From an uncultured archaeon (GTDB lineage: Archaea > Thermoproteota > Nitrososphaeria > Nitrososphaerales > Gagatemarchaeaceae): a stretch of DNA of 64,000 nt. The DNA lies in assembly GCA_963817525.1 (NCBI GenBank), contig CAWFOU010000001.1, forward strand, positions 768,001 through 832,000, read 5' to 3'. Shown here one piece after another: positions 2,981 to 22,202 of the stretch. Under the pieces are notes generated by a model. It was not told where the DNA came from and ran no database searches. It saw nothing but the letters and a program-made list of their open reading frames with translations. How positions within the stretch are numbered: the stretch's first letter is position 1; each line of letters starts with the position of its first letter. The translations under genes were made by a program, and so were the position numbers.

Positions 2981-3182
2981 CTTGTCAAAGGGATATTGAA
3001 ATCGCCGGGTTGTTCGCAAACTTGAGAGCAACCATAGCCCGAAGGGGCTTGGTAATTCATCCAGGCCGACCCAAAGCTGGCAGACTAATCGGCACAACCA
3101 AGGTATAGAAATACGCGAGACAACCTGCATCGCCCTATGGCATCAGACGCGAAGTTCGAATCCGACCCTGGGTATGTAATGA

Positions 3183-3261
3183 TGGCGGGCCCGGAGAGAT
3201 TTGAACTCTCGACCCTCGGCTTCGGAGGCCGATGCCCTGATCCGTGCTAGGCTACGGGCCC
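3183..3261 (-). tRNA. tRNA-Arg(CCG), CCA encoded
   Basis: GGGCCCG acceptor, TCGGC-CTCCGAA-GCCGA anticodon arm, GAGAG-TTCAAAT-CTCTC T arm, ends GCCA. Confidence 0.95.
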
Positions 3262-5716: not shown

Positions 5717-5831
5717 TTCGCTTTCGGTGCCACCGCGGCCCTTGTTAACTCCGTGTCGTCGAACCGCAGAATTGAGGAACGAGCATGGCAAGCTAAAAAG
5801 CCCGGTTTCTGGGGCCGTGACTCGCACTAGC

Positions 5832-5904
5832 AGCCCGTTCGTCTAGTGGTCAAGGATAGGGGCCTCTGGAGCCTCTGACCCAGGTTCGAATCCTGGACGG
5901 GCTA
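5832..5904 (+). tRNA. tRNA-Gln(CTG); anchor of the cassette array
   Basis: AGCCCGT acceptor, GGGGC-CTCTGGA-GCCTC anticodon arm, CCAGG-TTCGAAT-CCTGG T arm, ACGGGCT-A. Confidence 0.95.
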
Positions 5905-6051
5905 TCTCTCCAATTCCTGCTCTTTTTGCACTTTGTGGTCTGATTCAGGTCGCGCTTGCCCGAAGGAGTCCGCGCGGACCGTCGGTTTGTTGATTCCAGA
6001 ACATGTTACCACACACCTTAATTTCGACCATGCATTCCAGGAGAGGTTGCA

Positions 6052-7362
6052 ATGGATGTCGATTCCCAAAGAGGTATCGGCAAATCTGCCGGTCTTGCCG
6101 TAGCCGCCGCCCTTCTCGTTATCGCCGGGCTCATAGCTTTCGCAGGGACCACGAAAACTCCAGCAAGCATCTCTTCCAATCAATCGTCCCCCGCTTCGAG
6201 GGCCAGTCAATTCACGTTCTTCAATTCAACAGTCTCTCTGGACGGCCTACAACTTGGCGTGGCTCTGAATACGACGTCACTTCCGGCAGGCCAAGGTTTG
6301 TCAGCCGATGTGTATCTCACGAACACTCTGCCCAGGAACATCTCGCTCCCCGCGAATCTCACAGCCTTCGGGGGGGATTCGACCCTCGAGTCTTTGGGCC
6401 GTGGCTATCAGTGCGATGGGGCGGGGCTTCTGGGCGTACTCAATTTTGGAGTTTACCGGGGACACTATACCGCAGAGAATTTCTCACAGGAGCCCGCTCC
6501 TCTCTTGATGGAGGCTCCTGTTCCTGGCAGTTGTCCAAACCCGTACTACTACGTCCAATCGCAAACTCAGGGTTTTGAATTTGCGCCAAACAGCGACATG
6601 GCCACGCTTTCAGGGCAGAAGACGACTGAGATGCATCTCACTCTCCAAAGTATCAACTTCACAGCGGTTCCATACACGTTCTGCTGTGAGACGATTATTC
6701 AGAACGGATCGACAACGACTTCGCGAAGTGGAATGGACCTTGGAGGGTCATGGTCGCCCTCCGAGGGCGCTAGAGGTTACTGGACGATGCCCCCTAACGG
6801 CACCGCCATCCCTTCATTTGGAGGAAGCAACATACTTCAGACCGTTAATCAGGTCCACGACCTCTATCACGAGTTCGGCCCGGGTCTCTATACGATTGTG
6901 GCGGAGGACTTTTGGAACCAGACCGCGTTCGCGTATTTTGGGGTCCACCCCAACTCTTCCTCTTCGACAATCGCTTGCTTCGAAACAGGGTTCCCTTCAA
7001 CCATCTCCGTAAGGCTCGTTCAAGACGCAACGTTGCAGCCTGCACAAGGGGTTCATGTCTTCGCTTACGAATTGAACCCTTGCGGTGCGTCGAATCAGGT
7101 AGACCTTGGCGTCACGAACTCCACTGGGTATGCTCCTATTCAGCTGAACTGGAACGGAAAATACACCGTCGAAGTCGACTACAATTCCCAAACAATCTTT
7201 GGTTTCTCAGGTCAATCTTTCAATCTACCGACGCTTGACACCCTGAGCGTCCCGTCAGGGATTGTAACAGAACAGACCAACGGTTGCCTGCCAGATGCTT
7301 GTCTCCCATACACGACGACGACAACGGCTAACATCACCACTGCTCTACCGGGCGGTCCTTGA
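6052..7362 (+). CDS. membrane-anchored secreted protein (cassette 1)
   Basis: N-terminal TM segment, Ser/Thr/Asn-rich beta-type body with many N-x-S/T sequons. Confidence 0.75.
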   Translation: MDVDSQRGIGKSAGLAVAAALLVIAGLIAFAGTTKTPASISSNQSSPASRASQFTFFNSTVSLDGLQLGVALNTTSLPAGQGLSADVYLTNTLPRNISLPANLTAFGGDSTLESLGRGYQCDGAGLLGVLNFGVYRGHYTAENFSQEPAPLLMEAPVPGSCPNPYYYVQSQTQGFEFAPNSDMATLSGQKTTEMHLTLQSINFTAVPYTFCCETIIQNGSTTTSRSGMDLGGSWSPSEGARGYWTMPPNGTAIPSFGGSNILQTVNQVHDLYHEFGPGLYTIVAEDFWNQTAFAYFGVHPNSSSSTIACFETGFPSTISVRLVQDATLQPAQGVHVFAYELNPCGASNQVDLGVTNSTGYAPIQLNWNGKYTVEVDYNSQTIFGFSGQSFNLPTLDTLSVPSGIVTEQTNGCLPDACLPYTTTTTANITTALPGGP

Positions 7363-7368
7363 CTGGAT

Positions 7369-7396
7369 GGATTAGTACCTATTCGGGTGCGAACAA
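7369..7396 (+). repeat. orphan type-B site (11-6-11)
   Basis: GGATTAGTACC-TATTCG-GGTGCGAACAA, starting 7 bp after a stop codon; no tRNA 3' end follows. Confidence 0.6.
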
Positions 7397-7420
7397 CGTT
7401 CAGGCGAAGATACCACCAAT

Positions 7421-7475
7421 GAGTGTCAAATTCCACGTAAAAGCCCCTGAACAGGTGCAGCTCCTGGGCGGCCTA
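7421..7475 (+). repeat. junction J1, type A
   Basis: GAGTGTCAAATTCCACGTAAAAGCCCCTGAACAGGTGCAGCT-CCTGGGCGGCCTA (core has 2 mismatches). Confidence 0.85.
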
Positions 7476-7617
7476 TTTTCTGTTGGCGCTCTGGTGGTGC
7501 CGAATGGAGTTCTGCTCCGGAGTGGGCACTTCTCGAGTCTTCCCGGTCCGACTCTGCCAAATCGAGTAAGGAGACTCTAACGTTCGGTTTTCGGACGCCT
7601 ACTCAGCTGATGGGATC

Positions 7618-8040
7618 CTACGTCGCTAATGGATCGACAAACTTCATCTCACGACTTTTGAACCGCAAGCTCTGAAGGCTCAGCAGATCCTGATCGTGGG
7701 TCAGCATCGTTTCGATTCCGTTCCTGAGGTAGCAACCTACAATCAGAGCGTCTCTTCCCCCCAAGTTGAGCTTTGTTCCCAAGTCCAACGAAAAAAGCGA
7801 AACCGTCTTGGTGAGATTGAAGAAGACTGTCCGCCGGTCCTTGACGAGCGTACGAAGTTTCAATCGCCCGTCTGCAGGTGACATTCCTCTCTTGAATACC
7901 AGGGTATGATATGATTCATGTACCACGGTAGGGTTTAGCGCCCAAGCTTGGGTTGACAAGATGGAGTCTCTAGCTTTCACGTGCTCGTCGGTTGTTGGAT
8001 CCAAGGCGTGGACTAGGATGCTGGAATCTATGCCATTCAC
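7618..8040 (-). CDS. vapC: PIN-domain (VapC) toxin
   Basis: IDSSILV...E...GGRDALI...THDQD acidic PIN motifs. Confidence 0.85.
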   Translation of the reverse strand: MNGIDSSILVHALDPTTDEHVKARDSILSTQAWALNPTVVHESYHTLVFKRGMSPADGRLKLRTLVKDRRTVFFNLTKTVSLFSLDLGTKLNLGGRDALIVGCYLRNGIETMLTHDQDLLSLQSLRFKSREMKFVDPLAT

Positions 8041-8276
8041 TTAGCTCGCCAGATTTCTTTGATTTCATCTTCTTTGACCAGCTGCGGCTTCCTCGTTCTC
8101 TTAGGGTCCCAAGACATCGTCTCGCGGAGCGAATCCTCTGTTTCCTTTGCCTTTTTCACGGTGACAAAGCCCTTCTCCTTCTTGAACGTGACTACGCTGC
8201 CTTCCACTAGACCCAATTCATCGGCGATGTCCTTGGGTAGCACTACCCTTCTCTTGTCGTCCAGGATAGAGGTCAT
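8037..8276 (-). CDS. vapB: AbrB/MazE-fold antitoxin
   Basis: LDDKRRVVLPKDIADELGLVEG; overlaps the PIN start. Confidence 0.85.
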   Translation of the reverse strand: MTSILDDKRRVVLPKDIADELGLVEGSVVTFKKEKGFVTVKKAKETEDSLRETMSWDPKRTRKPQLVKEDEIKEIWRAK

Positions 8277-8299
8277 GTCCCACCACATCCGGTGGGACA
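8276..8299. promoter_or_regulatory. putative TA autoregulatory operator
   Basis: perfect inverted repeat TGTCCCACC-ACATCC-GGTGGGACA at the antitoxin start. Confidence 0.55.
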
Positions 8300-8496
8300 A
8301 ACTAATATGTGTTTAGGCGCTCCTGCTACCCGGCCAGAGCATCCACGACAGCCAGACCCTGGTCAAGGGTCCGATCAACGCCAACCATGAATACCCTCTC
8401 ACCATCTACGGCGCCCTCCCCCAGGAGGATTGATTTCTCCTATACAGTGATGATACAAATCTAGGCACCGAGTTGAAACTCAGCAGCACCTCAGAG

Positions 8497-8551
8497 GAGT
8501 GCAAATTTCCGCCTAATAGCCCCTAAACAGGTGCAGCCCCTGGATGGGCTA
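8497..8551 (+). repeat. junction J2, type A
   Basis: GAGTGCAAATTTCCGCCTAATAGCCCCTAAACAGGTGCAGCC-CCTGGATGGGCTA. Confidence 0.9.
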
Positions 8552-8798
8552 CCTATTTTGACCTCTATTGGTCAAAAGAGACAGCGTTGACGCTGTTACT
8601 AGGTAAAATGCCACAGATTCGGGTCATTTCACAACCAGAGCCACGAACTAGACGATTTCATCCTCACCGAGACAATGGATTCGAACCTTACTGAGGGATG
8701 AAGCCATCTCGAATCCGAAGAGGCCCGCCCCTGAACGCGTTTTCAAAGCGGATTCCGGGAAAGCTCTTGCCCACCCTATTCTTCCAAGTTGCAAGACT

Positions 8799-9134
8799 CT
8801 ACTTCGTAACACCTGGGTTCTTGGACATCAGCCATCGCTCGCCCCAGGACTTCATTTCGTATAGGGAATCGCTCAACTCGCGGCCCCTCTCAGTCAAGGA
8901 GTATTGGACTGAGATTGGCGATGTCTCCAAGACCCTCCTCTCGAGGATGTCTTGCTCTGCCAGGTGCTTGAGCGATCGTGAAAGCGTCTTGGAGCTCACG
9001 TTCCCCATCGCACGCCTGAGCTGGTTGTACTTCAAAGGCTCGTCATGAAGGTACCTGATAGCGATCATGTTCCATTGGTTGCCAAGCATCTTCATCGTCG
9101 CCACTGCAGGGCATATTGACGCATCGACGTGCAT
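8799..9134 (-). CDS. HxlR-family regulator, close paralog of 934..1308
   Basis: MHVDASICPAVATMKMLGNQWNMIAIRYLHD..., GAGGTGA SD before ATG. Confidence 0.9.
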   Translation of the reverse strand: MHVDASICPAVATMKMLGNQWNMIAIRYLHDEPLKYNQLRRAMGNVSSKTLSRSLKHLAEQDILERRVLETSPISVQYSLTERGRELSDSLYEMKSWGERWLMSKNPGVTK

Positions 9135-9302
9135 TGTCACCTCAGGTTTGTGTCGTGTTCTCCGTGTCGCCTTCTGTGTGATTTCGTTTAGAACCCTCCC
9201 TTTGTACTGCCTGGAGCCGGGGTCGCCACGCAGTGCCTGCATAACAATACGGTGCGGCTGAGGGGGCCGGCCGCCTTGCGAGCGATGGCTACCCAACCGG
9301 CA

Positions 9303-9935
9303 TCAACGTTCTGGCGCCGCATTTTCACGCCGCGGCAGGAGCATCAAGTCGGCCGCCTCTTCGGCATCCCTGAGAAGCGTCTTGCGCGGCGTGCCTATCA
9401 GCGCACCCATGGTAAGGCCACGAGCAAAATCAACGACCTGGCTTGCGCGGATGGCCACGGGAAAGTCGGACGGGATTTCGCCCGCGCTCATCGCGTCCCG
9501 GAAACGACCTTCCACTAGTCCTACGGCGTGAGCGGCCGCGTTCTGTAGGAACTGCCGGACCTCAGCATCGTTCACGAGCGGCGCGACGCACTCGAGAAGA
9601 CATCCGCGAGCTGATCCCTCCTGGGTCGCGGTTTCTACGGCGTTCCTCATGAAGGCGGCGAGCGAGTCGCGAAGAGTGCGCGGCGAGAGGAGTGCCTTCG
9701 CAGCGAGAGCCCCTTTCGTCTCTGCGTACGCCCTAAGGGCGCGCAAGAACAACGTCCGCTTGTCTCCGAAGACGGAATACAGGCTCGGCCGTCCCACGCC
9801 CATCCCTGCGACGAGGTCGTCGATCGTCACTCCGTCGTAGCCCTTCGACCAGAATACCTGGATCGCCTTTTCCAGCGCGAACCTCTCATCGAAGCTGCGC
9901 GGCCGTCCACGCGGCCTGGCGTCATTTTGCAACAT
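9303..9935 (-). CDS. TetR/AcrR-family regulator
   Basis: RGRPRSFD...FWSKGYDGVTIDDLVAGMGVGRPSLYSVFGDK. Confidence 0.9.
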   Translation of the reverse strand: MLQNDARPRGRPRSFDERFALEKAIQVFWSKGYDGVTIDDLVAGMGVGRPSLYSVFGDKRTLFLRALRAYAETKGALAAKALLSPRTLRDSLAAFMRNAVETATQEGSARGCLLECVAPLVNDAEVRQFLQNAAAHAVGLVEGRFRDAMSAGEIPSDFPVAIRASQVVDFARGLTMGALIGTPRKTLLRDAEEAADLMLLPRRENAAPER

Positions 9936-10208
9936 TTAGTTTAAATCTCCTGGAGAAGGCCATCGCACCGATATAAAAACCGAATAGTTCGTAATTAGCA
10001 AGCTTACCCTGGCCTCGCGGGGCCTCACGACTCGACCTTCACCGTTTACCACGGAGGCGCCCATGGAACATTCGATCGCACTCGTCACCGGTCGGCGCAA
10101 AACGCCGGAAGGCCTACAAGATTGCCGAGTTCGTTGAGGGTGACTCACCGGTGCCGTCAACGCACTTAGCTCATCAGATCAAGTGTCGACGCATTTCGCG
10201 TACTGCTT

Positions 10209-10967
10209 TCAGAGTTGCGACGCACCGCCATCGACCGGAAGTTCGGCACCGGTGGTGAAGGTCGCGTCGAATGCGAGGAAGAGAACGGCCTTCGCAATTT
10301 CCTCCGGCATCCCAAAGCGCTTCATCGGATTAGTAGCGATCGCCTGCTCCCTGACATGGGCGGCCACGCCTTTCTCGGGAAACACTTTGCCGATGATCGG
10401 CGTGTCGATGGGACCGGGCGTTACCGCATTGACGCGAATCTCCCGAGGCAGAAGCTCAGCGGCGAGCACGCGAGCAAATGAGCGCAGCGCGGCCTTGGAC
10501 GCTGCGTAGGTCGCTTGGTTGGGACTTCCCTTGACGTTTGCGATGGAGGTCGTGAGGACGACGGCGCCCCCCCGGTTTATCAGCGGCGCGAACTTCTGCA
10601 CCGCGAAAAACGGTCCTTTGGCGTTCAGATCGAACATCTCGTCGTACATGGCCTCGGTCGTGTTTTCGAGAGGGGCAAAGAGGGCAAATCCGGCGTTGGC
10701 GAAGAGCAGGTCGAAGGTGCCGAACTCGGCCTTCACCCGAGAGGCGAGGGCGTCGATGTCCTTCAACGAGCGCGCGTCGCTGGGAACCACGATGGCGTCC
10801 TTTCCAATCTCTTTCTGCGCCGATTCCAGGCCGGCGTGTGACCGCCCCGTCACCAGAACACGCGCACCCCCATCGAGGAGCATCTTCGCCGTGGCGAGCC
10901 CGCTGCCGCTGGTGCCGCCAGTGATCACGACTTTCTTTCCTTGGTACCGTTCCATGTGAGTTGTCAT
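10209..10967 (-). CDS. short-chain dehydrogenase/reductase
   Basis: TGGTSGSG, NAG, YAASK, VDGG motifs. Confidence 0.9.
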   Translation of the reverse strand: MTTHMERYQGKKVVITGGTSGSGLATAKMLLDGGARVLVTGRSHAGLESAQKEIGKDAIVVPSDARSLKDIDALASRVKAEFGTFDLLFANAGFALFAPLENTTEAMYDEMFDLNAKGPFFAVQKFAPLINRGGAVVLTTSIANVKGSPNQATYAASKAALRSFARVLAAELLPREIRVNAVTPGPIDTPIIGKVFPEKGVAAHVREQAIATNPMKRFGMPEEIAKAVLFLAFDATFTTGAELPVDGGASQL

Positions 10968-11104
10968 TGCGAGGTTAGGGTTGCTTTGCCTAATAATTAA
11001 CTGTTTAGTATGATAATCTCACGCGGAGGCCGCTGTCAAGGAATGTTTGAACTAGTTATTTCCATTTTGGAACTAGTTATTTCAAAATACCTTAGGACCC
11101 CGAG

Positions 11105-11121
11105 ACCTGCCGGGCCCGCCA
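11105..11121 (+). repeat. 3' end of an Arg/Lys-type tRNA (copy 1)
   Basis: ACCTGCCGGGCCCGCCA, identical at 20915-20931; last 12 nt equal the tRNA-Arg 3' end including CCA. Confidence 0.75.
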
Positions 11122-11130
11122 TCGGCCGAA

Positions 11131-11185
11131 GACTGCAAAATTCCACCTAAAAGCCCCTAAACAGGTGCAGCCCCTGGACGGGCTA
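11131..11185 (+). repeat. junction J3, type A
   Basis: GACTGCAAAATTCCACCTAAAAGCCCCTAAACAGGTGCAGCC-CCTGGACGGGCTA. Confidence 0.95.
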
Positions 11186-11289
11186 ACTTATCTCCTCAAT
11201 TCCGCCTCTATTCGCGATTCTGAGCATAAATGAGGCCACGCTATCCCCAAGAGCGCATATTGTTGCCCTGAGATGAAATGCTGGACATA

Positions 11290-11317
11290 GGTTCTTTGCG
11301 CCTCCGCCGGGGCATTT
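11290..11317 (+). repeat. 28-bp direct repeat, left copy
   Basis: GGTTCTTTGCGCCTCCGCCGGGGCATTT; 27/28 identical to 12138-12165. Confidence 0.85.
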
Positions 11318-11356
11318 CGCTCGCACGCGAGCGCTCAGACACAATGGATTTCGTAA

Positions 11357-12031
11357 TTATCCGCAGGTGTTGTAGACAGTGTTGATTTCGCCGAAGATCC
11401 AAGTCTCGTTAGAGATGAGCCAAGCACCCCCGACATCGACATATGAGGCGCCCAACCTTACGCTTTCTGCCCAAGGTTGAGTAAGATTCGCACCGCTAGA
11501 AAAAGCCGTGATGGTAGGACCGGATTCGCTTCCCTGCGCGTTGAACGTAGAATTCACGGTAGTTTCCCCCTTGACATTTGCAAAGACTCCAGGGCTAAAG
11601 TCCGTGAAGTTCATGGTGCCGGAGCGTGTCGAGTTGAACATCACATGATACAAGATGTTGATGTTGTAGATACCTGCGTATGCCCCGCTAAAGCCGTTAG
11701 GACTGCATACGAGATTGAGCGTCGCGTTGCTTTCATATTGGGCAACCAGCGCAGTCACATTTTGTGACTGTTCGCTCTGGAGGTGAGCGGCAAAGGCGCT
11801 CATGACCTCCTGGCTGGAGTTAATCGTCAACGTGGTCGTGCTCACCATGATTGTAGTCTGCGTGTTTGTTTGGTCAACCGTCGTAGTAGTAGTTCTGATT
11901 GAACCTGGACTGACGAGAGAGTAGGCGATTCCCGCGCCGATCAGCAGTCCGACGAACAGCAGGGCGACGGCAGTACGACCGACAGCGCGATGAGCGGTCT
12001 TGCGGGCCATCCGAACGTCGGTCCTGAGCAT
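11357..12031 (-). CDS. membrane-anchored secreted protein, possible NTF2/SnoaL-like domain
   Basis: TM segment, Thr-rich linker, QNVTALVAQYESNA...WLISNETW pattern. Confidence 0.65.
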   Translation of the reverse strand: MLRTDVRMARKTAHRAVGRTAVALLFVGLLIGAGIAYSLVSPGSIRTTTTTVDQTNTQTTIMVSTTTLTINSSQEVMSAFAAHLQSEQSQNVTALVAQYESNATLNLVCSPNGFSGAYAGIYNINILYHVMFNSTRSGTMNFTDFSPGVFANVKGETTVNSTFNAQGSESGPTITAFSSGANLTQPWAESVRLGASYVDVGGAWLISNETWIFGEINTVYNTCG

Positions 12032-12137
12032 ATGCCCGGCCCCATTAATACGGTTCGACAGAATGTTCGAGAGGCCCTGCCCGAGCTCCGCTACGCTTTG
12101 TCTAAAATGAAGTTGCAGGGCAATCGCCCATCATAAG

Positions 12138-12165
12138 GGTTCATTGCGCCTCCGCCGGGGCATTT
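12138..12165 (+). repeat. 28-bp direct repeat, right copy
   Basis: GGTTCATTGCGCCTCCGCCGGGGCATTT. Confidence 0.85.
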
Positions 12166-12195
12166 ACCCGTTTTCGCCCTGAACCCGACTATGGC

Positions 12196-12250
12196 AGCGC
12201 CAAATTCCCGCGTAAAAGCCCCTAATCAGGTGCAGCCCCTGGACGGGCTA
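12196..12250 (+). repeat. junction J4, type A
   Basis: AGCGCCAAATTCCCGCGTAAAAGCCCCTAATCAGGTGCAGCC-CCTGGACGGGCTA. Confidence 0.95.
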
Positions 12251-12477
12251 CCTATTTTAGCCTCTGTTTGCCTTATACGCCATGATTTACACTAATCCCT
12301 CGTAGAAAGCTTCAATTCGACTATATCACGATTCGATTTTCGGGACGACGCGTACCCAGCGCCGTCTTACGTGAGAGCCTACTCTCAATATTCATAAGAT
12401 TTCATAGTGCCGTGATTCTTAAAAATTGTTTCGTGAGCAACATCTCTATCCTTCGCCTTCTCTCTCCTACGACCAGC

Positions 12478-14988
12478 TCATGGCGAGGCAACACTGGCCG
12501 ATGGGGCGGGAGGGCTCTGAGGAAGCTGGACCTTCTTCGTTCCAGTGACTCCGACATCGCGATTCAGCCTCCCGTAGAATGGGACCTTCAAGAAGTCCGT
12601 AACGAGGAAGGATACCAACGTGTAACCCCAGACGAACCCTGCCAGCTTCCATCCCATTGCGGGAAGCAGGATGCCGTAGACCGTGATTATCGTCGCCGTC
12701 AGCTGCGTGAGTACGACCGCGAGGAGCAACACCTTCGCAGGCCTTACCGACCAGAATCGCCCCTTCGTCCTTGCCACAAAGAGCTCGAGGTGCCCGGCCA
12801 CGGAGAGCTTCAAGTATATGAACGACTGGAGGACGAGCGGGTTCAGGTGCAGGACGTCCAGCCCGATGATGAGTATCCCGAAGGACGACGCCGTCCCGAT
12901 GCCTCCCAGGAACGACGAGATTGTCAGGAGCGTGCGCATGTTCCACTTCTCGGGCTTCTTCGAGATCTTGACGTTGTCATAGGCTATCGTCATGATTGGC
13001 ATGTCGTTGAGGAGGGCCAGAAGGACAATCATCAGCGCTGTGACAGGATACAGCTGAAAAACGATGATCGAGAACGAGATGAAGAAGAGGACCCTGAACG
13101 TCTCGCTGATGCGATAGATCGCGTAGTTGGTCATGCGCTGGAATATCTCCCGGCTCGAGGTGACGGCGTCGATGATCACGGAGAGGCCGGGCTTCGTCAG
13201 GACCACGGCCGCGGCTGACTTCGCCGCGTCGGTGGCTCCCGCCACCGCTATCCCACAGTCGGCCTTCTTCAGCGCCGGGGCGTCGTTGACCCCGTCGCCG
13301 GTCATGCTGACGATGTGGCCCTTCTTCTGGAGGAGCTCGACGATCTTGTACTTGTGCTCAGGGAACACCTCGGCGAAGCCGTCGACGCCTTCTATCGCCG
13401 CCTCCGCTTCGCTATCCGACTTGCCGAGGATTGACGACGAGGTGACTATGTTGGTGCCCAGCCCCACCTCTCGGGCCACCTCCTTCGCGATGGCCACGTG
13501 GTCGCCGGTTACCATCTTGACGGTAATGCCCATGGACTGCGCGGTCTTGATCGTCGCGGCGGAGTCCTCCCGCGGCGGGTCGGTGAGCGCGACGAGCCCT
13601 ACGAACTTCCACTCCTCCCCGCCGTCGGTCTTGGCCACGCCGAGGGCCCGGTACCCCTTCTCGGCGAAGCCGACGACGTCTTGATTCACGGGGCCCTCGA
13701 CGCCCTTGTCGTGCACCAGAGCCAGGACGACCTGAGGCGCCCCCTTGGTCACCTGGAACCCGGGGCCGTCCTTGCCTTGGGCGGTCGCCTCTGTCCGCTT
13801 CGAGACGGGGTCGAACGGCTTGAACGATGAGACTTTGTAGCTCGATATCGAGGCGGGAACCCCGTCTAGGATCTTGGCCTTCGCGATGATCGCGTCATCG
13901 ATAGGGTCTTTGTCCTCGGCCCGCGAGGCTAGAGACGCGTACAGCAGGACATCGTTCACGGTGTACTTTTCGAAGGTCTTCATCTCGCCCACGGTAAGCT
14001 CGTTCTTCGTTATCGTGCCCGTCTTGTCCGCGCACAGGATGTCCACGCCGGCCATCTCGTCTATGGCGACCAGCTTGCTGACTATGGCCTCCTTCTTCGC
14101 GAGAGCCGACGCACCTACAGTCATGCAGACCGAGAGCACGGCCGGCATCGCCGCCGGGATTGCTGCGACGATGAGGACCAGCCCGAACTGTAGGATGTCG
14201 AGCGGCGCTTGGTTGCGCAGGAGCCCGACTATCGACGTGGCCGTCACCATCGCTATGGCGAGCGCGATGAGATAGTCGCCGATCTTCACCACCGCCCCTT
14301 GGAAGTGGCTCTTGGTGTGCGCCTCCTCGACCAGCCTCGTAGTCCGCCCGTAGAAGGTCTTCATCCCAGTAGTGACGACGAGCGCGTTCATCTCGCCCTG
14401 CCGGACGATCGAGGAGGAGAACGCGACGTCGCCCGAATGCTTCTCCACTGGCAGGGACTCCCCTGTCAGCGCCGATTCGTCGATCTGGAGGTACGCGCCG
14501 TCGACGAGCTTCGTGTCCGCTGGGACGATGTTGCCGAGTCGCAGGCGGACGATGTCCCCCGGTACGAGTTCCTTTGCGGGCAGGTCGGCCCACTTCCCGT
14601 CCCGCAGCACTTTTGCGGTGAGTGCCAGTCTCTTCTTCAGAAGCTCTATCTCGTTGTTGGCCTTGTTCTCCTGCCAGGACCTCACGATGACGTTCACGAC
14701 CAAGAGGGCGCCGATGATGACGAGGTCGTCCCAGTTCTTCAACACCGCCGAGATGACCGCCGCCGCCTCTATCATCCACGGAATCGGTCCCCAAAAATAG
14801 CGGAGGATAGCGACGATTGGGGCGCGCTTCTTCTCGGTTATCTCGTTCGCTCCGTACTGCTGGAGTCTATTGGCTGCTGCTGAAGCGGAGAGCCCTTTTT
14901 CGCTCGTCGCAAGTCTCTTGAACAGTTCCGCGATCGGAAGATCCTTTTCCTCAGCGGGAGTTACGTCGGTCAAGTCAGCTGCCCGCAC
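12478..14988 (-). CDS. plasma-membrane proton-efflux P-type ATPase (P3A, Pma1-like)
   Basis: FWGPIPWMIEAAA, LTGES, DKTGT, KGAPQ, MTGDGVNDAPALKKAD, LALLND. Confidence 0.92.
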   Translation of the reverse strand: MRAADLTDVTPAEEKDLPIAELFKRLATSEKGLSASAAANRLQQYGANEITEKKRAPIVAILRYFWGPIPWMIEAAAVISAVLKNWDDLVIIGALLVVNVIVRSWQENKANNEIELLKKRLALTAKVLRDGKWADLPAKELVPGDIVRLRLGNIVPADTKLVDGAYLQIDESALTGESLPVEKHSGDVAFSSSIVRQGEMNALVVTTGMKTFYGRTTRLVEEAHTKSHFQGAVVKIGDYLIALAIAMVTATSIVGLLRNQAPLDILQFGLVLIVAAIPAAMPAVLSVCMTVGASALAKKEAIVSKLVAIDEMAGVDILCADKTGTITKNELTVGEMKTFEKYTVNDVLLYASLASRAEDKDPIDDAIIAKAKILDGVPASISSYKVSSFKPFDPVSKRTEATAQGKDGPGFQVTKGAPQVVLALVHDKGVEGPVNQDVVGFAEKGYRALGVAKTDGGEEWKFVGLVALTDPPREDSAATIKTAQSMGITVKMVTGDHVAIAKEVAREVGLGTNIVTSSSILGKSDSEAEAAIEGVDGFAEVFPEHKYKIVELLQKKGHIVSMTGDGVNDAPALKKADCGIAVAGATDAAKSAAAVVLTKPGLSVIIDAVTSSREIFQRMTNYAIYRISETFRVLFFISFSIIVFQLYPVTALMIVLLALLNDMPIMTIAYDNVKISKKPEKWNMRTLLTISSFLGGIGTASSFGILIIGLDVLHLNPLVLQSFIYLKLSVAGHLELFVARTKGRFWSVRPAKVLLLAVVLTQLTATIITVYGILLPAMGWKLAGFVWGYTLVSFLVTDFLKVPFYGRLNRDVGVTGTKKVQLPQSPPAPSASVASP

Positions 14989-15716
14989 TGCCCTGCCTAG
15001 CCTTCTTATTGGTGATGACCATTAAAAGGCGCCGATTGCCCGACACCGCGAAAAAAATACGCAATAAGAAAAAGCAGTGCGGGACGGGGTATTGCGATAT
15101 CTTCCGAACAAATTCTATTTGTCTTGTGGCGGGTCTACCTTGACAGGCTTGGGCTTTTGCTCAGGGCTCGCGTCCCGTCTGGCATTGGCCTGAGAGCGGT
15201 CCGCAGTCCCTGACACACCCGGACCGCCAATAAAGCCGCTCTCAAAGGCTTGTGTGGGTTCCTTAGGATCGGAGTTGTCGTCTCGGGTCGTCGGTGCGAC
15301 GGTCGGCTCACCGCCGCCGGATTGCGAGCCAGGTTCGGGCCTCAATCAGGATAGCCGATGTCTGCGACCTTGCCTACCTTGTCTGCTTCCTCGTTCCTGC
15401 TCCAATAAGTCTGCTGCTCCTTCGCGAGGTCCTCGGCGTCCTTCTGCCTCTGCGAGCGTTGTGCCATGGCGTCATCAGCCTGACCCCGGCATAGCTTGCT
15501 ATGTCTTGATTGCTGTGGGATGATGCTCTGAAAGCTCGCCACGGTGTTTTCGCGGCATTCCTACAGAAGAGACAACGTGTCAGAACCGGCCCTCGAGCAA
15601 ATATTGTCATAAGGGCTTTCCTAAGCTAGCGTCCCAAGGGACCTCCACGCAAACTTGCAATCGTTTCAACAAGCTGGGAGAGAATAGAACCACTCCGGGG
15701 TAAACCCGGCCGGGTG

Positions 15717-15771
15717 GATGTCAAAATCGGCTCTAGAAGCCCCTAAACAAGGTCAGCCCCCGGACGGGCTA
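15717..15771 (+). repeat. junction J5, type A
   Basis: GATGTCAAAATCGGCTCTAGAAGCCCCTAAACAAGGTCAGCC-CCCGGACGGGCTA. Confidence 0.9.
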
Positions 15772-15830
15772 TTTCCTGTGTAATGCTGGTATCTCTTTCG
15801 ATATTAGGAAGCATAATGCTCCCTTCGGTC

Positions 15831-16511
15831 ATGGGTCAGAAAGAGAGGAGAACACAGTCATCGCCCATCAAGGGAAAGCTCATCACCGAGACCTTCGACT
15901 TTGACGGTGGTCGGCAGGTAACCGTGTACCTGCCGCCGGTTCAGGCCGAGGCTGTCGTATTCGCGGGTGACGGCCAGTTGATCTCACAGTGGGGGCGGTG
16001 TCCTCGAGGGAGCCGACGTTGGGCCGACAATGATTGTCGGTGTCCACCGGAAGGACGACGAGATGCTGCGGCTCCACGAGTACTCGCCGGTCTTTGACGC
16101 AGAACGGTTCGCGGCACACGAGAAGTTCTTCATCGAAGACGTCCGCCATTGGGTGCGGACGCGTTTCGGAGTCGCGCTGCTCGCCGAACGCACGGCGGTG
16201 CTAGGCGTCTCCGCGAGTGGAGAGCTCGCCCTCGCCATGGGGATTCGACATCCCGATATCTACGGTTCGGTCTTCTGCGCTTCGCCGGGTGGAGGATACC
16301 GACCGCCTGCCGTGATGCCGAATTCACTCCCGCGCGCGTACCTTGTCGCCGGCAAGTTGGAGCCATTCTTCCTCGCGAACGCGACCCGTTGGGCGGTAGC
16401 GTTGCGCGGCGCGGGTGCGGACGTCGTCATGACTGAGCGCGTCGGTTCGCACGGCGGCGCGTTTTGGGGGATGAGTTCCCGCTGATGGTGGCCTGGGCGT
16501 TTGGACGCTGA
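15831..16511 (+). pseudogene. enterochelin-esterase-like alpha/beta hydrolase with two frameshifts
   Basis: RQVTVYLPP, GVSASG nucleophile elbow, GSHGG; shifts at G runs near 15990-15995 and 16466-16470. Confidence 0.7.
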
Positions 16512-16520
16512 TGGAGTCGT

Positions 16521-16561
16521 GGGACAAATCGAACCAAAAGCCCCGAATCCTAGACGGGCTA
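16521..16561 (+). repeat. junction J6, type C
   Basis: GGGACAAATCGAACCAAAAGCCC-CGAATCCTAGACGGGCTA; last 18 nt are 17/18 identical to tRNA-Gln. Confidence 0.85.
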
Positions 16562-16593
16562 CAGGTTTATGTACTAGCGGGAAAGTAAATGGG

Positions 16594-16845
16594 ATGGGAA
16601 TTCTGATGGGCGAGGCAGTCATAGACGAGCGAGGAAGGATAGTGATTCCGAACGAGATAAGGTCAGAACTCAAACTGAGACCCGAGCAGAAACTCAGGAT
16701 ATCCAGGAAAGGGAAGGATCTGCTGCTTTCGCCGGAGGTAAGTGCGGACGAGTTCATTTCAGAGCTGAGAGGCTGCGTGCACGGCTCGAAGATCAAGCCC
16801 GCCGACCTCAAGAACATCTGGGGTGTCGGCCATGCTCACCATTGA
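16594..16845 (+). CDS. vapB: AbrB/MazE-fold antitoxin
   Basis: IDERGRIVIPNEIRSELKLRP. Confidence 0.85.
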   Translation: MGILMGEAVIDERGRIVIPNEIRSELKLRPEQKLRISRKGKDLLLSPEVSADEFISELRGCVHGSKIKPADLKNIWGVGHAHH

Positions 16846-17245
16846 CACGAACATCTGGGCCTACTACTTGGACAGTGACTGTTCGGAGCATCGATCGGTC
16901 GTCGGACCGGTGGAGAAGGCCCTCAGGTCAGAGCAGATAGCGATAAACACAATAATCGTGATGGAATTGGCCCACTTTCTCGTCAAGAGCCTTGGAGCTC
17001 CGATAGGCGGAGAGAAGTTGGACGAGTTCCTTCGATTCCCGCTGGTCATCACGGACTTTGATTACCGGCACGCCCTCGGCGCAATAGAGATGCTGAAGAA
17101 GTACTCGCACTTGGGCATCGGGGGCAGGGACGCAACGCTCTTGGCCATGATGGACGGCGCCGGCGAAAAGAGGATAATGACTCACGACGAACCGCTGAAG
17201 AAGGTCGACTGGATCGAATCTATCGACCCAGTCAAACTGGCCTGA
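16832..17245 (+). CDS. vapC: PIN-domain (VapC) toxin
   Basis: IDTNIW...E...GGRDATL...THD. Confidence 0.85.
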   Translation: MLTIDTNIWAYYLDSDCSEHRSVVGPVEKALRSEQIAINTIIVMELAHFLVKSLGAPIGGEKLDEFLRFPLVITDFDYRHALGAIEMLKKYSHLGIGGRDATLLAMMDGAGEKRIMTHDEPLKKVDWIESIDPVKLA

Positions 17246-17248
17246 GAC

Positions 17249-17303
17249 GGCGCCAAATTCCCGCCTGAAAACCCCTAAACAGGTGCAGACCCTGGATGGG
17301 CTA
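17249..17303 (+). repeat. junction J7, type A
   Basis: GGCGCCAAATTCCCGCCTGAAAACCCCTAAACAGGTGCAGAC-CCTGGATGGGCTA, 4 bp after the PIN stop. Confidence 0.9.
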
Positions 17304-17415
17304 CCTATTTTAGCCTCTGTTTGCCTAATCCGCCATGATTTACACTAATCCTTCGTAAAAAGCTTCAATTCCAACTATATCACGATTCGGTTGTTGGGAC
17401 GACACGTACGCAGCG

Positions 17416-17443
17416 CATTCGGGGGCAGGCCCCGTCGGGCCCG
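17416..17443 (+). repeat. junction-like site ending in an Arg/Lys-type tRNA 3' end
   Basis: CATTCG-GGGGCAGGCCC-CGT-CGGGCCC-G, same register as the Gln sites, followed by the TCCTCAATT tail. Confidence 0.6.
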
Positions 17444-17532
17444 CTGTCATTCCTCAATTTTTACTCTATTTGCGTAGAACGGCCAGATTCTGCCCTGTCA
17501 AGAGCAAAACGTCCAATCATTGACCATATTTT

Positions 17533-18282
17533 TTACTTCCATCGCGTCAGTATCTCTTCCCTGCGGAAGGTAGCCCTCGCTGCGATAAACAGAATCAGGT
17601 CACCCGCGAGCAGTGCCCCCGCGATGAGAAGCAGGCTATTAGTGACGCCGAGGTTGACCAGGTTGATCTCGCCCCCGACGTATATCGCTATGAAGGGGGC
17701 TGCCGCCACTGCGCCGAGCTGCTGCGCGATCCGGACGTCGCTCACTCTCGACGAAACTATCACGTTCCACTCCACGCTCAGCACGACCGCGAGAGGGACC
17801 ATCAGGAACAAGACAATCCAAGAGTTCAAGGTTGGAAAGAAGTAGTAGCCCAGCTTGGGCTCGGTGACCAGATCCATCAGGGCCATGAAGATGACCGACC
17901 CGCTCAGGATCGCGGCCATCGGCGGCAGGAACGCCGAAATCCCTTTGCCGAGCAGGATCTCGCCGTCGGTCACTGGGGCCGCCAGGAGCCGATCGAGGCT
18001 CTTCTCCAGCTTCTCGCCCACTATGCTGTACGACGCAATGTAGGTTGGTATCACGCCAGAGAGCATCAAGAAGAAGAATTGGAACGCGGGCAGAAGTACG
18101 GTCAGTTCCTGCGGTGATGTTCGCTGGCTGGCCGCTCTGAAGTGTTCCAAGTAGTAGATTACTGCAGGGAATAGGATACCTACCATTACGGGTACGAAGA
18201 AAGTGAGGTAGAGTATGTTCTTCTTCCTCAAGAATACCTTGAAGTCCTTCGATGCTATGATCCACGACTTTGCGAGTCTCAT
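17533..18282 (-). CDS. ABC-2 type exporter permease
   Basis: SYSIVGEK...LLAAPVTDGEILLGK, about six TM segments. Confidence 0.85.
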   Translation of the reverse strand: MRLAKSWIIASKDFKVFLRKKNILYLTFFVPVMVGILFPAVIYYLEHFRAASQRTSPQELTVLLPAFQFFFLMLSGVIPTYIASYSIVGEKLEKSLDRLLAAPVTDGEILLGKGISAFLPPMAAILSGSVIFMALMDLVTEPKLGYYFFPTLNSWIVLFLMVPLAVVLSVEWNVIVSSRVSDVRIAQQLGAVAAAPFIAIYVGGEINLVNLGVTNSLLLIAGALLAGDLILFIAARATFRREEILTRWK

Positions 18283-19202
18283 GTGTCGCCGCGCCTCACA
18301 AGTTTCAGGTACGTGTCCTCCAAGCTCGATCCTACGGTCGTGACAGACCTGACTTGGCCTCCGGCACTATAGATAGCGTCAGAGATGACCACATTCTCGG
18401 TGTCCGGGTCTTTCACGTCGACGGTCAGCGTGTTGCCATCAACGGTCATGTTATTGAGAGGCAGCTTCCTCAGCGCAGCCAGGACCGCGTCGGTCATCTG
18501 CACGAGCTGAATCACCGTCTTCCTCCCGCTTACCGAACGCTCCAGCTCTTGCGGCGTTCCCATCGCCATCAGCTTCGTGTTCAGGATGGCAATCCTGTCG
18601 CAGATCCTCTGGGCCTCGTCAAGATTGTGCGTGTTTAGGAAGATGGTCCGCTTCTCCTTCTTAAGCTCCAGGATGAAGTCCCTCACGGTCTTTGCCGCCT
18701 CGGGGTCGAGGTTCGCTGTGGGCTCGTCCATGAAGAGCACCTGCGGCTCGTGGACGAGGGCGCACGCAATCCCGAGCTTCTGCTTCATCCCTTTCGAGTA
18801 CGTTCCAACAGTGACGTCCCTCTTCTCCCAGAGCCCTAGCATCGTGAGGAAGCGCTGTATGCTCTCCTTCCTCTGCGCCTCCGTGCGGTCGTAGAGCTTC
18901 CCGTAAAAATCCAAATTGTCGTAGGCGCTGAGGTCGTCATAGAGCCCTACGCTATCGGGCACCATTCCTATCACCTTCCTTAGCTTCAGCGCGTCGGCCT
19001 CTTTTCCCACCTCATACCCGGCGACGCTCGCCTCACCGCTTGTCTTCGAGATCAGGCAGCAGAGCATCCGCACCGTGGTAGTCTTCCCCGCCCCGTTGGG
19101 CCCGAGGAAGCCGAAGACCTCCCCATCGTCGACGCGGAGGGTCACGCCATCGACTGCGGTCAGGTCGCCGAACTTCTTGGTAAGGTTCTCGGTCTCAATC
19201 AA
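18279..19202 (-). CDS. ABC exporter ATP-binding protein
   Basis: GPNGAGKTT, YSKGMKQ, FMDEP. Confidence 0.92.
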   Translation of the reverse strand: MIETENLTKKFGDLTAVDGVTLRVDDGEVFGFLGPNGAGKTTTVRMLCCLISKTSGEASVAGYEVGKEADALKLRKVIGMVPDSVGLYDDLSAYDNLDFYGKLYDRTEAQRKESIQRFLTMLGLWEKRDVTVGTYSKGMKQKLGIACALVHEPQVLFMDEPTANLDPEAAKTVRDFILELKKEKRTIFLNTHNLDEAQRICDRIAILNTKLMAMGTPQELERSVSGRKTVIQLVQMTDAVLAALRKLPLNNMTVDGNTLTVDVKDPDTENVVISDAIYSAGGQVRSVTTVGSSLEDTYLKLVRRGDT

Positions 19203-19231
19203 ACTGCGTCACCGATGAGAAGTGCCCCGCT

Positions 19232-19528
19232 CTATTTGCCCGCGCTAGAACTCTGTACAGGCTTGCCATCCACGAGCACGCTGATTTTTCTCCCAAAGGC
19301 CCAGCGCGTCATTCCGAGGTCGACTTCGACTTTGTGGACCTCTGAACTCCCGACGTCGAAGGCGAACTTTTTCGCGCCAGGCGATAAGAGGGATTCGTCG
19401 ATGACCTTCTGGCCATCCAATTCGATACGGATTCTCTTCATGACCTGATTGGCATCGACCGTGAGAGCGTGCTTCTCCCTCTCGCCTACCTCGAAACTAG
19501 ACTTTCCCACGGGTTTCGAAATAGTCAA
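19232..19528 (-). CDS. hypothetical protein
   Basis: 98-aa beta-rich ORF upstream of the ABC genes. Confidence 0.55.
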   Translation of the reverse strand: MTISKPVGKSSFEVGEREKHALTVDANQVMKRIRIELDGQKVIDESLLSPGAKKFAFDVGSSEVHKVEVDLGMTRWAFGRKISVLVDGKPVQSSSAGK

Positions 19529-19627
19529 AGCGGATATAAAAAGTCCGAAAGGTACAAGTTTTGTACCTATAGCCGCATCTTATATTGTGGAAGCAGTAAG
19601 ACAAAGAATGAAGATGCCAGAGCCGAA

Positions 19628-20305
19628 ATGATGGATAATGGAGCGGTCGATGCCGCTCCCTCTGAAGTGAGGCGCGCGGTCAAACGAGCCATTCTCCTCA
19701 ACGAATACTTGCTTCGCCGAGCTTGGGGTGTGCTGTTCCTCGCACTTTCGTTCTCAATGTTCCTTTCGACCTTTGGAACGCCTATCGTTGACTCGCTGGA
19801 GTCAGTCGGGGCCGCAAGCACCCTACCAATCAACGTGATTGCGAGCGGCTGCGCCGTGATTGCCATCCTCTGGGCGTTCAAACGAGTGCGAAACTCCGCG
19901 GAAATCACCCACCCCGAAGGCGACCGAGCTTGGTCAAGGCTGCTTGGTTACCGCTTTGTCGTGCCTCTGTGGATCGCATTCGACGCAGCCGCGATTTTGA
20001 CGTTCGCGCTTGCAAGAAGCCAAGTTCCGCTGGTTCTCTTTTTGGTGCACCTTGGACTGGCCGTCTACCTGTATTACGCCCTAAGACTCTCTTTTTCGAA
20101 GAGGATCCCTGGAGAGGCTGTTATCGCAATAGCTTCGCTCTCGTTGGGTAGCATCGCGTCAATCGCTTTGCTGTCAATTACCGCGAGCGCTGGGCCGTAC
20201 GTGCTCCTCGCGGGGGGCACGATTCTCACTTGGACCTTCTCCGGAATCTACGCGCGTACCAGACCTATTCCAGAATTCGAGGAGGAGCGTACCGGGCTTG
20301 AATGA
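19628..20305 (+). CDS. hypothetical multi-pass membrane protein
   Basis: about six hydrophobic segments; overlaps the downstream HTH gene. Confidence 0.7.
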   Translation: MMDNGAVDAAPSEVRRAVKRAILLNEYLLRRAWGVLFLALSFSMFLSTFGTPIVDSLESVGAASTLPINVIASGCAVIAILWAFKRVRNSAEITHPEGDRAWSRLLGYRFVVPLWIAFDAAAILTFALARSQVPLVLFLVHLGLAVYLYYALRLSFSKRIPGEAVIAIASLSLGSIASIALLSITASAGPYVLLAGGTILTWTFSGIYARTRPIPEFEEERTGLE

Positions 20306-20657
20306 CGACGAAATCAGCAAACGGGATTATGACAAGACCGCCAAGGATGAGACGATTAGATCGCTAAATGAGCAGCTCGGCGACTCGGCCCTCAAATCGT
20401 CCGCTCGAATCCTGATACTGGTGTTGCTCGCACAGGCTCGAAGGATGAGCTCAGTAGAACTAAGGACGCTCACAGGACTGGGAAAGGGGAGCCTCGAGAA
20501 CCACCTGAATAAGCTTGAGAGCTTCGGTTATGTCAAGGTAAGCAACGCAAAGTCCCTAGGAGCAAGGGGTTCTCCAAGGCAAATCGTCGAGATTACTGAG
20601 AATGGACTAGGTGTTTGTCGCGCTCTTGTGAGAAGCATCTCGAGTTTGGCTCTCTGA
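20298..20657 (+). CDS. winged-helix (ArsR/HTH_34-like) regulator
   Basis: RILIL...ELRTLTGLGKGSLENHLNKLESFGYV...ITENG. Confidence 0.8.
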   Translation: MNDDEISKRDYDKTAKDETIRSLNEQLGDSALKSSARILILVLLAQARRMSSVELRTLTGLGKGSLENHLNKLESFGYVKVSNAKSLGARGSPRQIVEITENGLGVCRALVRSISSLAL

Positions 20658-20699
20658 TAATCGCCACCGCTACGATGTCTACCAATGAGCGGGTCCTTT

Positions 20700-20738
20700 G
20701 GATTCGTACCTGATGAGGTGCAGCCCCTGGACGGGCTA
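20700..20738 (+). repeat. junction J8, type B
   Basis: GGATTCGTACC-TGATGA-GGTGCAGCCCC-TGGACGGGCTA. Confidence 0.92.
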
Positions 20739-20914
20739 TCTCCTCATTTTGCGCCCCATTTAGCCCACCCGATTTAATACACACTTTTCACAGGCGACAC
20801 GCTTAATTATCTGACCATAGTGGTAATCCGACCAAGAATCCTGTTCCTTTTCAACTGCATGAGAGAATGGATTCGAACCCCGGCATACGGACGATTCCGT
20901 CGAGCCGTCTCAGA

Positions 20915-20962
20915 ACCTGCCGGGCCCGCCACAAATATCTCCCCGGGCTGGATTCGAACTTC
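20915..20962 (+). repeat. Arg/Lys-type tRNA 3' end plus downstream inverted T-loop motif
   Basis: ACCTGCCGGGCCCGCCA-18 nt-GGATTCGAACTTC; same module lies behind the real tRNA-Arg. Confidence 0.8.
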
Positions 20963-21002
20963 CCGCATTGCAACCAGGTTGCGCAAGAGATATTCTTGAC
21001 GA

Positions 21003-22125: not shown

Positions 22126-22202
22126 TCGTCAGGGAACACCGTTGGAGCTGCCTTGGGAAGTATTGCATGAAGTAACGAGCTGTCCGCCCCGACGGGCAGA
22201 AT

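Follow-up and report, generated by a model that had tools for sequence, protein, structure and literature searches.

A module behind tRNA-Arg genes of an uncultured Gagatemarchaeaceae archaeon as the probable arm of small integrative elements, and Arg-type junctions inside a tRNA-Gln cassette array

The extract of Krupovic et al. (2019, PMC6563490) used here describes integrated elements of Thaumarchaeota that are inserted at the 3'-distal end of tRNA genes, encode tyrosine integrases and are bounded by attachment (att) repeats with a median length of 17 bp; the re-use of a site, leading to arrays, and the nesting of one element in another are mentioned there for archaea. For the SSV-type 'suicidal' integrases, the corresponding extract of Badel et al. 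(2020, PMC7253208) places attP inside the integrase gene and reports related integrases on different tRNA targets. The present analysis concerns a 64,000-nucleotide stretch of DNA from an uncultured archaeon of the Gagatemarchaeaceae (GenBank assembly GCA_963817525.1, contig CAWFOU010000001.1, positions 768,001 to 832,000; hereafter the window), in which a short module following a tRNA-Arg gene reappears within an array of cassettes behind a tRNA-Gln gene. Integrase-less, att-bounded segments stacked at one target and presumably moved in trans are known from bacteria as cis-mobilizable elements, which accumulate in tandem at the 3' ends of tRNA or other genes, while integrons combine the integrase IntI, the attI site and arrays of attC cassettes. 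Tycheposons of marine cyanobacteria reportedly target tRNA genes and give rise to variable islands in which partial tRNA repeats occur. With the thaumarchaeal elements, as far as the extract of PMC6563490 covers them, the locus described here shares the phylum, the 3' end of a tRNA gene as target, short att sequences (here cores of 12-16 nt) and tyrosine integrases.

The module consists of a tRNA 3' end (...GGCCCGCCA), 17-20 nt of spacer and the decamer GGATTCGAAC. On the minus strand of the window, CCGGGCCCGCCA at the end of tRNA-Arg(CCG) is followed by a 19-nt spacer (3164-3182) and by GGATTCGAACTTC at 3151-3163. A second copy on the plus strand joins the identical 12-mer (20920-20931) through an 18-nt spacer to the identical 13-mer (20950-20962), and in a third copy GGCCCGCCA at 24615-24623(+) is separated by 19 nt from GGATTCGCACTTG at 24643-24655, which doubles as the left arm of a Gln junction with its core at 24669-24681. 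All three sites had been proposed in the original prediction, made from the letters of the window alone, and were confirmed in the sequence at 3151-3194(-), 20920-20962 and 24615-24655. There is also a fourth exact CCGGGCCCGCCA, at 11110-11121(+); the decamer is missing there, and the Gln core at 11173 comes 52 nt further on. Two tRNA genes were found in the window by ARAGORN and Infernal, tRNA-Arg(CCG) and tRNA-Gln(CUG).

This arrangement is repeated far beyond chance. The genome, which is 95% complete, contains 51 copies of GGCCCGCCA and 86 sites of the form [AG]G[AG]TTCGNAC; genome-wide, 0.003 cases of the former lying 17-20 nt before the latter are expected and at least six were seen, in agreement with the enrichment that had been predicted. 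The comparison covered a family set of 97 genomes (this genome and 96 others), of which 23 form the genus, 22 besides this one. The stricter pattern GGCCCGCCA-N17-20-GGATTCGNAC gave four matches in this genome and nine in seven of the 96 other family genomes (6/22 in the genus); a backwards control of the module pattern had no match across all 97 genomes, and the module pattern had none in viral contigs. The spacer itself is conserved, since its consensus (approximately CCAATACTTCCCCAGAGTT) scored at least 10/19 at 12 of the 86 anchors against 0 of 61 in the reversed genome. Among 99 exact pattern matches in metagenome contigs, 24 carried the module spacer and 75 were unrelated, many of the latter being convergent tRNA genes. 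A core resembling a tRNA end in ...CCA adjoins the module in seven of the nine best genome copies. The decamer occurs within 60 nt downstream of only one of the 36 ARAGORN tRNA calls in the genome, that of tRNA-Arg(CCG), and the module is therefore not a general tRNA trailer.

Across genomes the module is found behind tRNA-Arg(CCG), tRNA-Arg(UCG) or tRNA-Arg(CCU), or behind sequences that repeat the final 12-16 bases of these genes without being tRNA genes themselves. It stands directly after tRNA-Arg(CCG) in this genome and at L003/L044, L113, L064, L146 and L143, after tRNA-Arg(UCG) at L038 and L098, and after tRNA-Arg(CCU) at L097 and L109. The 3' end common to these three tRNAs is GGGCCCGCCA, which terminates six tRNA genes of the genome. 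A tRNA ending in CCTGCCGGGCCCG, the existence of which had been anticipated, was identified as tRNA-Arg(UCG) (C7:1220035-1220112); the cores at 11106-11121 and 20916-20931 in the Gln array are identical to the final 16 nt of this gene, and tRNA-Arg(CCG) matches them over 12 nt only. The same arm is present at three isoacceptors in different genomes. The earlier view of the module as an end-piece of mobile cassettes tied to tRNA-Arg is supported, as is that of the Gln-array copies as Arg-type junction sequences. From the proposed origin in an Arg/Lys-tRNA locus, the Arg part was retained, with three tRNA-Arg isoacceptors, while the Lys part had to be given up, as no Lys tRNA is involved.

Past the decamer, the arms fall into three sub-types, alpha, beta and delta. 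The three beta arms (3030-3182, C8:75982 onward and L036) are alike over about 150 nt of non-coding sequence, after which unrelated cargo begins; in the window, the spacer and GGATTCGAACTTC are followed by about 120 nt of this conserved non-coding sequence. The delta arm of the second window copy resembles those at C7:156524, L039, C7:75923 and others. Behind alpha arms a conserved gene for a 236-aa protein comes next, for which no match was found in Pfam, PHROGs or the sequences of the PDB. This protein, which always follows alpha modules, carries histidine-phosphatase-like motifs (..LRHS.R.., ..GH..).

Behind tRNA-Arg(CCG), the next copy of the core is 8.3 kb away (C1:762850). The island between them encodes HxlR regulators, a peroxiredoxin (AhpC), three alpha/beta hydrolases, an MBL-fold protein, SnoaL and a disulphide oxidoreductase; no integrase was found within it or at its far end. 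Relatives of the arginyl-tRNA synthetase (ArgRS) place the organism in the Nitrososphaerota (Thaumarchaeota), among metagenome-assembled genomes from soil and peat, in which the order tRNA-Arg, ArgRS and tRNA-Gln is kept. In four of them (L001, L004, L005, L016) the sequence after tRNA-Arg(CCG) is unrelated to the module, a fifth (L003) has a different module sub-type at this place, and in L016, L001 and L004 the genes behind the tRNA are homologous to ones that here sit past the island. Because the island is absent or otherwise filled in relatives, the module marks where an inserted, variable island begins on the tRNA side. Another array, located at tRNA-Arg(CCU) (C8:68666-77379), comprises three junctions; each has a core of 16 nt, and the module is present at two of them. 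At tRNA-Arg(CCG), tRNA-Arg(CCU) and tRNA-Gln alike, the segments are flanked by direct repeats that match the 3' end of the tRNA beside them. The array behind tRNA-Arg(CCU) includes a gene for a MazF-like toxin, and a further array with Gln-type junctions was seen behind a tRNA ending in CCTGGCCGGGCTA (G000:C1:83357-85459).

Observed here are a repeat family at tRNA-Arg ends with cargo that varies, its presence in some relatives and absence from others, and integrase genes next to identical cores; Arg-type junctions also occur inside the Gln array, one of them shared between genomes. We consider it likely that the module is the tRNA-proximal, attP-like P' arm of small, mostly integrase-less integrative elements at tRNA-Arg ends. 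Such elements would enter, by site-specific recombination, the 3' end GGGCCCGCCA common to several tRNA-Arg genes. Each insertion would leave an intact tRNA followed by the P' arm of the element (the spacer, GGATTCGAAC and about 30-150 nt of sub-type-specific sequence) and, on the far side, a copy of the tRNA end. Repeated insertion could then produce arrays with junctions in the order P arm, tRNA-end core, P' arm. Integrases acting in trans, probably members of a divergent tyrosine-integrase family described below, would recombine the core carried by a circular cassette with either the tRNA end or a junction already in place, and the module might be bound by the integrase or a helper and set the direction of the reaction. 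At tRNA-Arg(CCG) the module would open the 8.3-kb island of stress and hydrolase genes. Cassettes entering Gln arrays would retain their old Arg-type sites, giving composite junctions: in the window, these would be a P arm and core set against a Gln arm and inherited with the cassette (site X), a complete junction (site Y), and a core and module fused to a Gln type-B arm (site Z; Table 1).

The Gln array is anchored at tRNA-Gln(CUG). The last 13 nt of this tRNA recur with at most two mismatches in 12 copies (7463, 8539, 11173, 12238, 15759, 16549, 17291, 20726, 22229, 23033, 24669 and 26365), and degenerate copies lie near 29440 and 30154. These Gln cores divide the region into cassettes of 0.8-5 kb with genes for PIN/MazE pairs, TetR together with SDR, a P-type ATPase, ABC transporters, glyoxalase, EVE and MarR proteins. 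The first open reading frame after the tRNA encodes a secreted Ser/Thr-rich protein with no match in Pfam or PHROGs. The left arms of the Gln cores are of two kinds, type A in five and type B in six of the 23 genus genomes, with no occurrence in controls; type B reads GATTCG[CT]ACCT-N4-AGGTGC-AGCC ahead of the Gln core. As a whole, 5832-30200 is an integron-like array in which about 13-14 cassettes, all without an integrase, stand behind tRNA-Gln(CUG). From its type-A junctions a mimic of the tRNA-Gln acceptor/T-arm minihelix can be drawn (AGCCCCT-AAA-CAGG-TGCAGCC-CCTG-G-ACGGGCT), and two ABC-transporter cassettes (ATPase plus ABC-2 permease; 17823-19209 and 27950-29336) are 73-78% identical and exactly 10127 bp apart.

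Sequence comparison supports an interpretation of the Arg copies in this array as Arg-type junction sequences carried in, or fused to, Gln cassettes. In site X, the Arg core (11110-11121) is followed by a Gln type-A arm (11128-11172) and a Gln core (11173-11185). The same composite, with one base of the Arg core changed, was found at G031:C2:196240 inside the Gln array of that genome. Site X therefore belongs to its cassette and was not made here, and the earlier proposal that the pieces had been recombined into the array at this place was not borne out: the composite travels with the cassette. Site Y, 193 nt past a Gln core, has its Arg core at 20920-20931 and there equals the tRNA-Arg(UCG) end over 16 nt; relatives (5/22 genomes) repeat only its core-plus-module part. 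For site Z, the chance of finding the 9-mer at such a spacing before one of five type-B arms is about 2e-4. The Arg core was lacking at all six type-B arms from relatives, which makes site Z a unique fusion. The hybrid nature originally suggested for this site holds for the Arg-like core and the spacer; the type-B arm is a conserved family of its own.

Searches with PF00589 detected seven integrase-like genes in the genome and none in the window. Starting from a truncated integrase gene that lies beside a module (C7:84042), a larger, divergent family of tyrosine integrases was found; the truncated gene also gave the weak integrase match that was the sole result when the unannotated island proteins were compared with PHROGs and NCBIfam. 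The family is present in 20 of the 23 genus genomes, with at least eight matches in this genome. Its profile matched archaeal XerA with an E-value of 1.9e-6, one of four members scored above the Pfam threshold, and database sources name its members site-specific integrases. Genes of the family adjoin GGGCCCGCCA-type cores at C1:1153250-1154746, L173, L172 and C7:145579. Most of the 120 database members listed begin just before the motif ..S.Y..LLED, about 35-50 codons past the core, and a TTATTAGG box is found 19-22 nt before this usual start. It follows that the core lies about 60 nt upstream of the usual start and that the arm between them holds the integrase promoter. The 13-mer TTTCCGCCTAATA is common to the integrase-side arms and the Gln type-A arm (8512-8524), which ties Arg and Gln arms to one integrase family by descent, short of shared enzyme action. 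The family, to which G000:C7:84042-84761 and 89892-90041 also belong, consists of tyrosine integrases of 430-520 aa that mostly escape PF00589. Many of the genes begin within tRNA-derived sequence or immediately next to it, and both orientations with respect to the tRNA occur.

Read on its other strand, the module has an A/T-rich box, an ATG and a reading frame that crosses the core; at tRNA-Arg(CCG) this frame (3137-3250, plus strand) runs antisense over the 3' end of the tRNA. In 24 of 32 distinct copies an in-frame ATG precedes TTCGAATCC by exactly 12 or 18 nt, against 3/32 and 1/32 for the other frames, and in 20 of these 24 the A/T-rich box (e.g. AGAAATA) lies 17-36 nt upstream of the ATG, with variable sequence between the two. 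Box and ATG resemble an archaeal promoter with a leaderless start, aimed across the core. The main rival explanation takes these features as an int(N) stump, that is, the promoter plus the initial 16-20 codons of a 'suicidal' integrase gene of the SSV type with the attachment site within its 5' end, which integration would leave beside the tRNA. The box and ATG are conserved together with the peptide pattern M-x(3-5)-K-F-E-S-x7-V-A-G-P over the core, and at site Y the V-A-G-P register is restored at the core despite an 18-nt spacer and two indels; compensating frameshifts at att borders are described in the extract of Badel et al. (2020, PMC7253208). Further points in its favour are an Int(C)-like stump at C7:145579 and the integrase at L172, both open at the core in the A-G-P frame and continuous to the integrase body, with a module-like box, an ATG and GTTCAGATTG ahead of the core at L172. 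A true split integrase of the SSV type also exists in the same genome: an 11-kb element in tRNA-Ser(GGA) (G000:C1:964972-976017) is bounded by a repeat of about 57 nt and has the N-terminal frame reading into the tRNA at its near end and the C-terminal part (PF16795) at its far end. However, this element provides the only PF16795 match in the genome (C1:965538-965804), away from the modules, and none was found in the five module-bearing relatives. An integrase-type arm joined to the module was met in 0 of the 97 family genomes, and in 37 of 37 copies the module frame stops 7-109 codons past the core without any integrase sequence. A phmmer search with a module-derived frame of 119 aa against 1.84 billion representatives returned only peptides of 47 and 53 aa. 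In addition, most of the 120 listed members of the integrase family start downstream of the core, with the TTATTAGG box before the start; no int(C) was found at the far end of the tRNA-Arg(CCG) island; third codon positions show no excess variation; and spacers of 18 and 20 nt exist. An int(N) stump thus appears unlikely.

The position of the module directly after a tRNA could also reflect a transcribed, structured RNA, such as a 3' trailer or processing signal of tRNA-Arg, a tRNA-like RNA or a small RNA, in which the inverted T-loop decamer could pair with the T-loop; a GCCC-CTTC-GGGC hairpin does end the beta arm. This is very improbable, given that the module is missing after tRNA-Arg(CCG) in four of the six relatives that have this tRNA next to ArgRS and that it also follows tRNA-end fragments which are no tRNA genes. 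A consensus fold of 27 copies reached only -3.1 kcal/mol with no covarying pairs. Rfam matches with E-values up to 10 over positions 1-33000 comprised the two tRNAs and four weak unrelated hits, and at the modules neither ARAGORN nor Rfam reported a tRNA or other RNA family. Split or permuted tRNA genes were considered and rejected, as ARAGORN with introns allowed found nothing at the fragments. An even poorer explanation is that the resemblance is debris, through chance or decayed inverted tRNA fragments without shared function. The genome is indeed rich in tRNA 3'-half fragments and inverted T-loops, among them an unrelated inverted T-arm fragment at 20869-20881, and 75 of the 99 matches from metagenomes are unrelated, convergent tRNA genes being frequent among them; however, the observed and expected juxtapositions given above, the absence of matches to the control pattern and the spacers kept across genomes already contradict it. 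The least credible explanation is that a large serine recombinase has its attL in the segment of about 53 bp comprising T-loop, tRNA end and inverted T-loop. The sites of these enzymes are long and weakly palindromic, and a rough dyad is present here: measured from the CCA end, the T-loop lies about 24-30 nt to the left and the inverted decamer about 29 nt to the right. Neither PF00239 (Resolvase) nor PF07508 (Recombinase) had a match in the 95%-complete genome, though, and the 12-16 identical nt of the cores are a length typical for tyrosine recombinases according to the extract of Krupovic et al. (2019, PMC6563490). Inverted integration through the palindromic CGGGCCCG core, considered as a source of the inverted T-loop, was dropped as well, as it predicts the decamer 3-4 nt from the palindrome and the distance seen is 22 nt.

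Several points weigh against the preferred reading of the module as the P' arm of integrase-less elements. At 22 nt from the palindrome CGGGCCCG, the decamer is too far away for an ordinary core-type site of a tyrosine recombinase. No integrase was found in or beside 13 module copies in family genomes or 24 in metagenomes, the nearest being 0.7-1.1 kb away and past a further junction, and the P arms that precede modules have no clear homology to the integrase-side arms. Spacer variability by codon position (0.98, 0.55 and 0.83 bits for positions 1, 2 and 3) is not coding-like. The likeness of site Z to the decamer and module may stem in part from the Gln type-B arm family itself. Contigs assembled from four DNA runs over 5800-25799 contained joints at Gln cores (5904>16545 and 17286>20725) and many breaks at repeats; no read of a circle or an empty site was found, and on one side these joints extend for only 26-28 nt, roughly one repeat length, so that they give no sign of mobility.

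A wider interpretation, which we put forward tentatively and regard as doubtful, is that the arms form a shared cis toolkit, that one integrase family acting in trans shuffles cassettes among tRNA-Arg genes and tRNA-Gln, and that the module is a recombination-state switch. If such shuffling takes place, the system would be a tRNA-anchored archaeal counterpart of the integron. If the module acts as a switch, an outward promoter and leaderless start would yield a product, either an extended integrase or that of neighbouring cassette genes, which depends on recombination.

The coordinates of the features are collected in Table 1. Two further observations were made in the window. Summed contig depth from the four soil DNA runs was 5-20 times higher at 9135-11135 and 13137-13803 than in the rest of the Gln array; this raised depth over the SDR and TetR genes and part of the P-type ATPase gene probably stems from related genes of other organisms. 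At 46514-47053 there is a dense series of overlapping direct repeats spaced by multiples of 3 (12-72 nt), probably a repetitive coding region.

Table 1. Coordinates of the tRNA genes, candidate attachment sites, junctions and associated frames (positions in the window unless a locus or contig is named)
Feature	Position	Strand	Composition or basis
tRNA-Arg(CCG)	3183-3261	-	ARAGORN; Infernal, 64.3 bits
Putative attachment core (O), last 12 nt of tRNA-Arg(CCG), CCGGGCCCGCCA	3183-3194	-	
Putative beta-type P' arm, left end of the 8.3-kb island at tRNA-Arg(CCG)	3030-3182	-	Alignment with two other copies
Box TATAGAAATA (3104-3113), ATG (3137) and 37-codon frame MASDAKFES..VMMAGP..	3104-3250	+	Translation
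tRNA-Gln(CUG), array anchor; last 13 nt CCTGGACGGGCTA	5832-5904	+	ARAGORN, Infernal
Site X, composite junction	11103-11185	+	Arg(UCG)-type P arm and core ACCTGCCGGGCCCGCCA, 6 nt, Gln type-A arm, Gln core
Separate inverted T-arm fragment GGATTCGAACCCC	20869-20881	+	36 nt before the Arg-type core of site Y
Site Y, complete Arg-type junction	20882-21000	+	P arm ..CAGAACCTGCC, core, 18-nt spacer, GGATTCGAACTTC, delta arm
Frame MREVRIQPGEIFVAGPAG.. from ATG 20968	20968-20810	-	Translation
Site Z, hybrid junction	24615-24681	+	Arg-like core GGCCCGCCA, 19-nt spacer, GGATTCGCACTTG, Gln type-B arm, Gln core
236-aa alpha-arm protein, copies	L040:732-1439(-), L045, L037, L042, L044; G000:C8:77483-78190		

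Among soil Thaumarchaeota, those that do not oxidise ammonia have not been cultured, and little is known of how they acquire accessory genes. In the genome studied here, small cassettes are stacked at no fewer than four tRNA genes; their genes are of the stress, transport, regulator and toxin-antitoxin kinds, and few types of conserved arm bound the stacks. If trans-acting integrases move these cassettes, they would amount to a gene-capture device that is integron-like in effect and built on tRNA ends, and the compact, defined attachment sites with their enzymes could serve as archaeal genetic tools. The promoter-like box and start codon over the core are a testable candidate for expression that depends on the recombination state.

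In the extracts of the archaeal att-site literature examined, which was searched without aiming at this motif, no arm family with a 19-nt spacer and an inverted T-loop across tRNA-Arg isoacceptors was met, and likewise neither a promoter-like box and start over the core nor Arg junctions in a Gln array. Compared with the thaumarchaeal elements in the extract of PMC6563490, the cassettes described here are small (0.2-8 kb), mostly integrase-less and arranged up to about 14 in a row, with conserved arms and with junctions that mix the ends of two tRNAs. The SSV-type integrases, as the extract of PMC7253208 presents them, are alike in having a frame with its own start over a tRNA-derived core, indels at att borders and differing tRNA targets, whereas here no integrase body continues the module frame in the copies examined and the local integrase family usually starts downstream of the core. 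Both the bacterial cis-mobilizable elements and the present cassettes are integrase-less, att-bounded and stacked beside one target; here, however, the host is archaeal, one arm family extends across tRNA-Arg isoacceptors, Arg sites occur in the Gln array, and a conserved outward promoter-like box is found together with a start codon. With integrons, the array shares promoter-poor cassettes of one or a few genes, conserved recombination sites between them and a cargo rich in toxin-antitoxin genes, but it is not headed by an integrase and attI, its sites are copies of a tRNA end with arms and not attC hairpins, and its genes lie on both strands. Tycheposons are alike in their tRNA targeting and partial tRNA repeats, while being bacterial and using other recombinase families. 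The building of islands at tRNA ends is known, and it is the mixed Arg/Gln form of this locus that is unusual.

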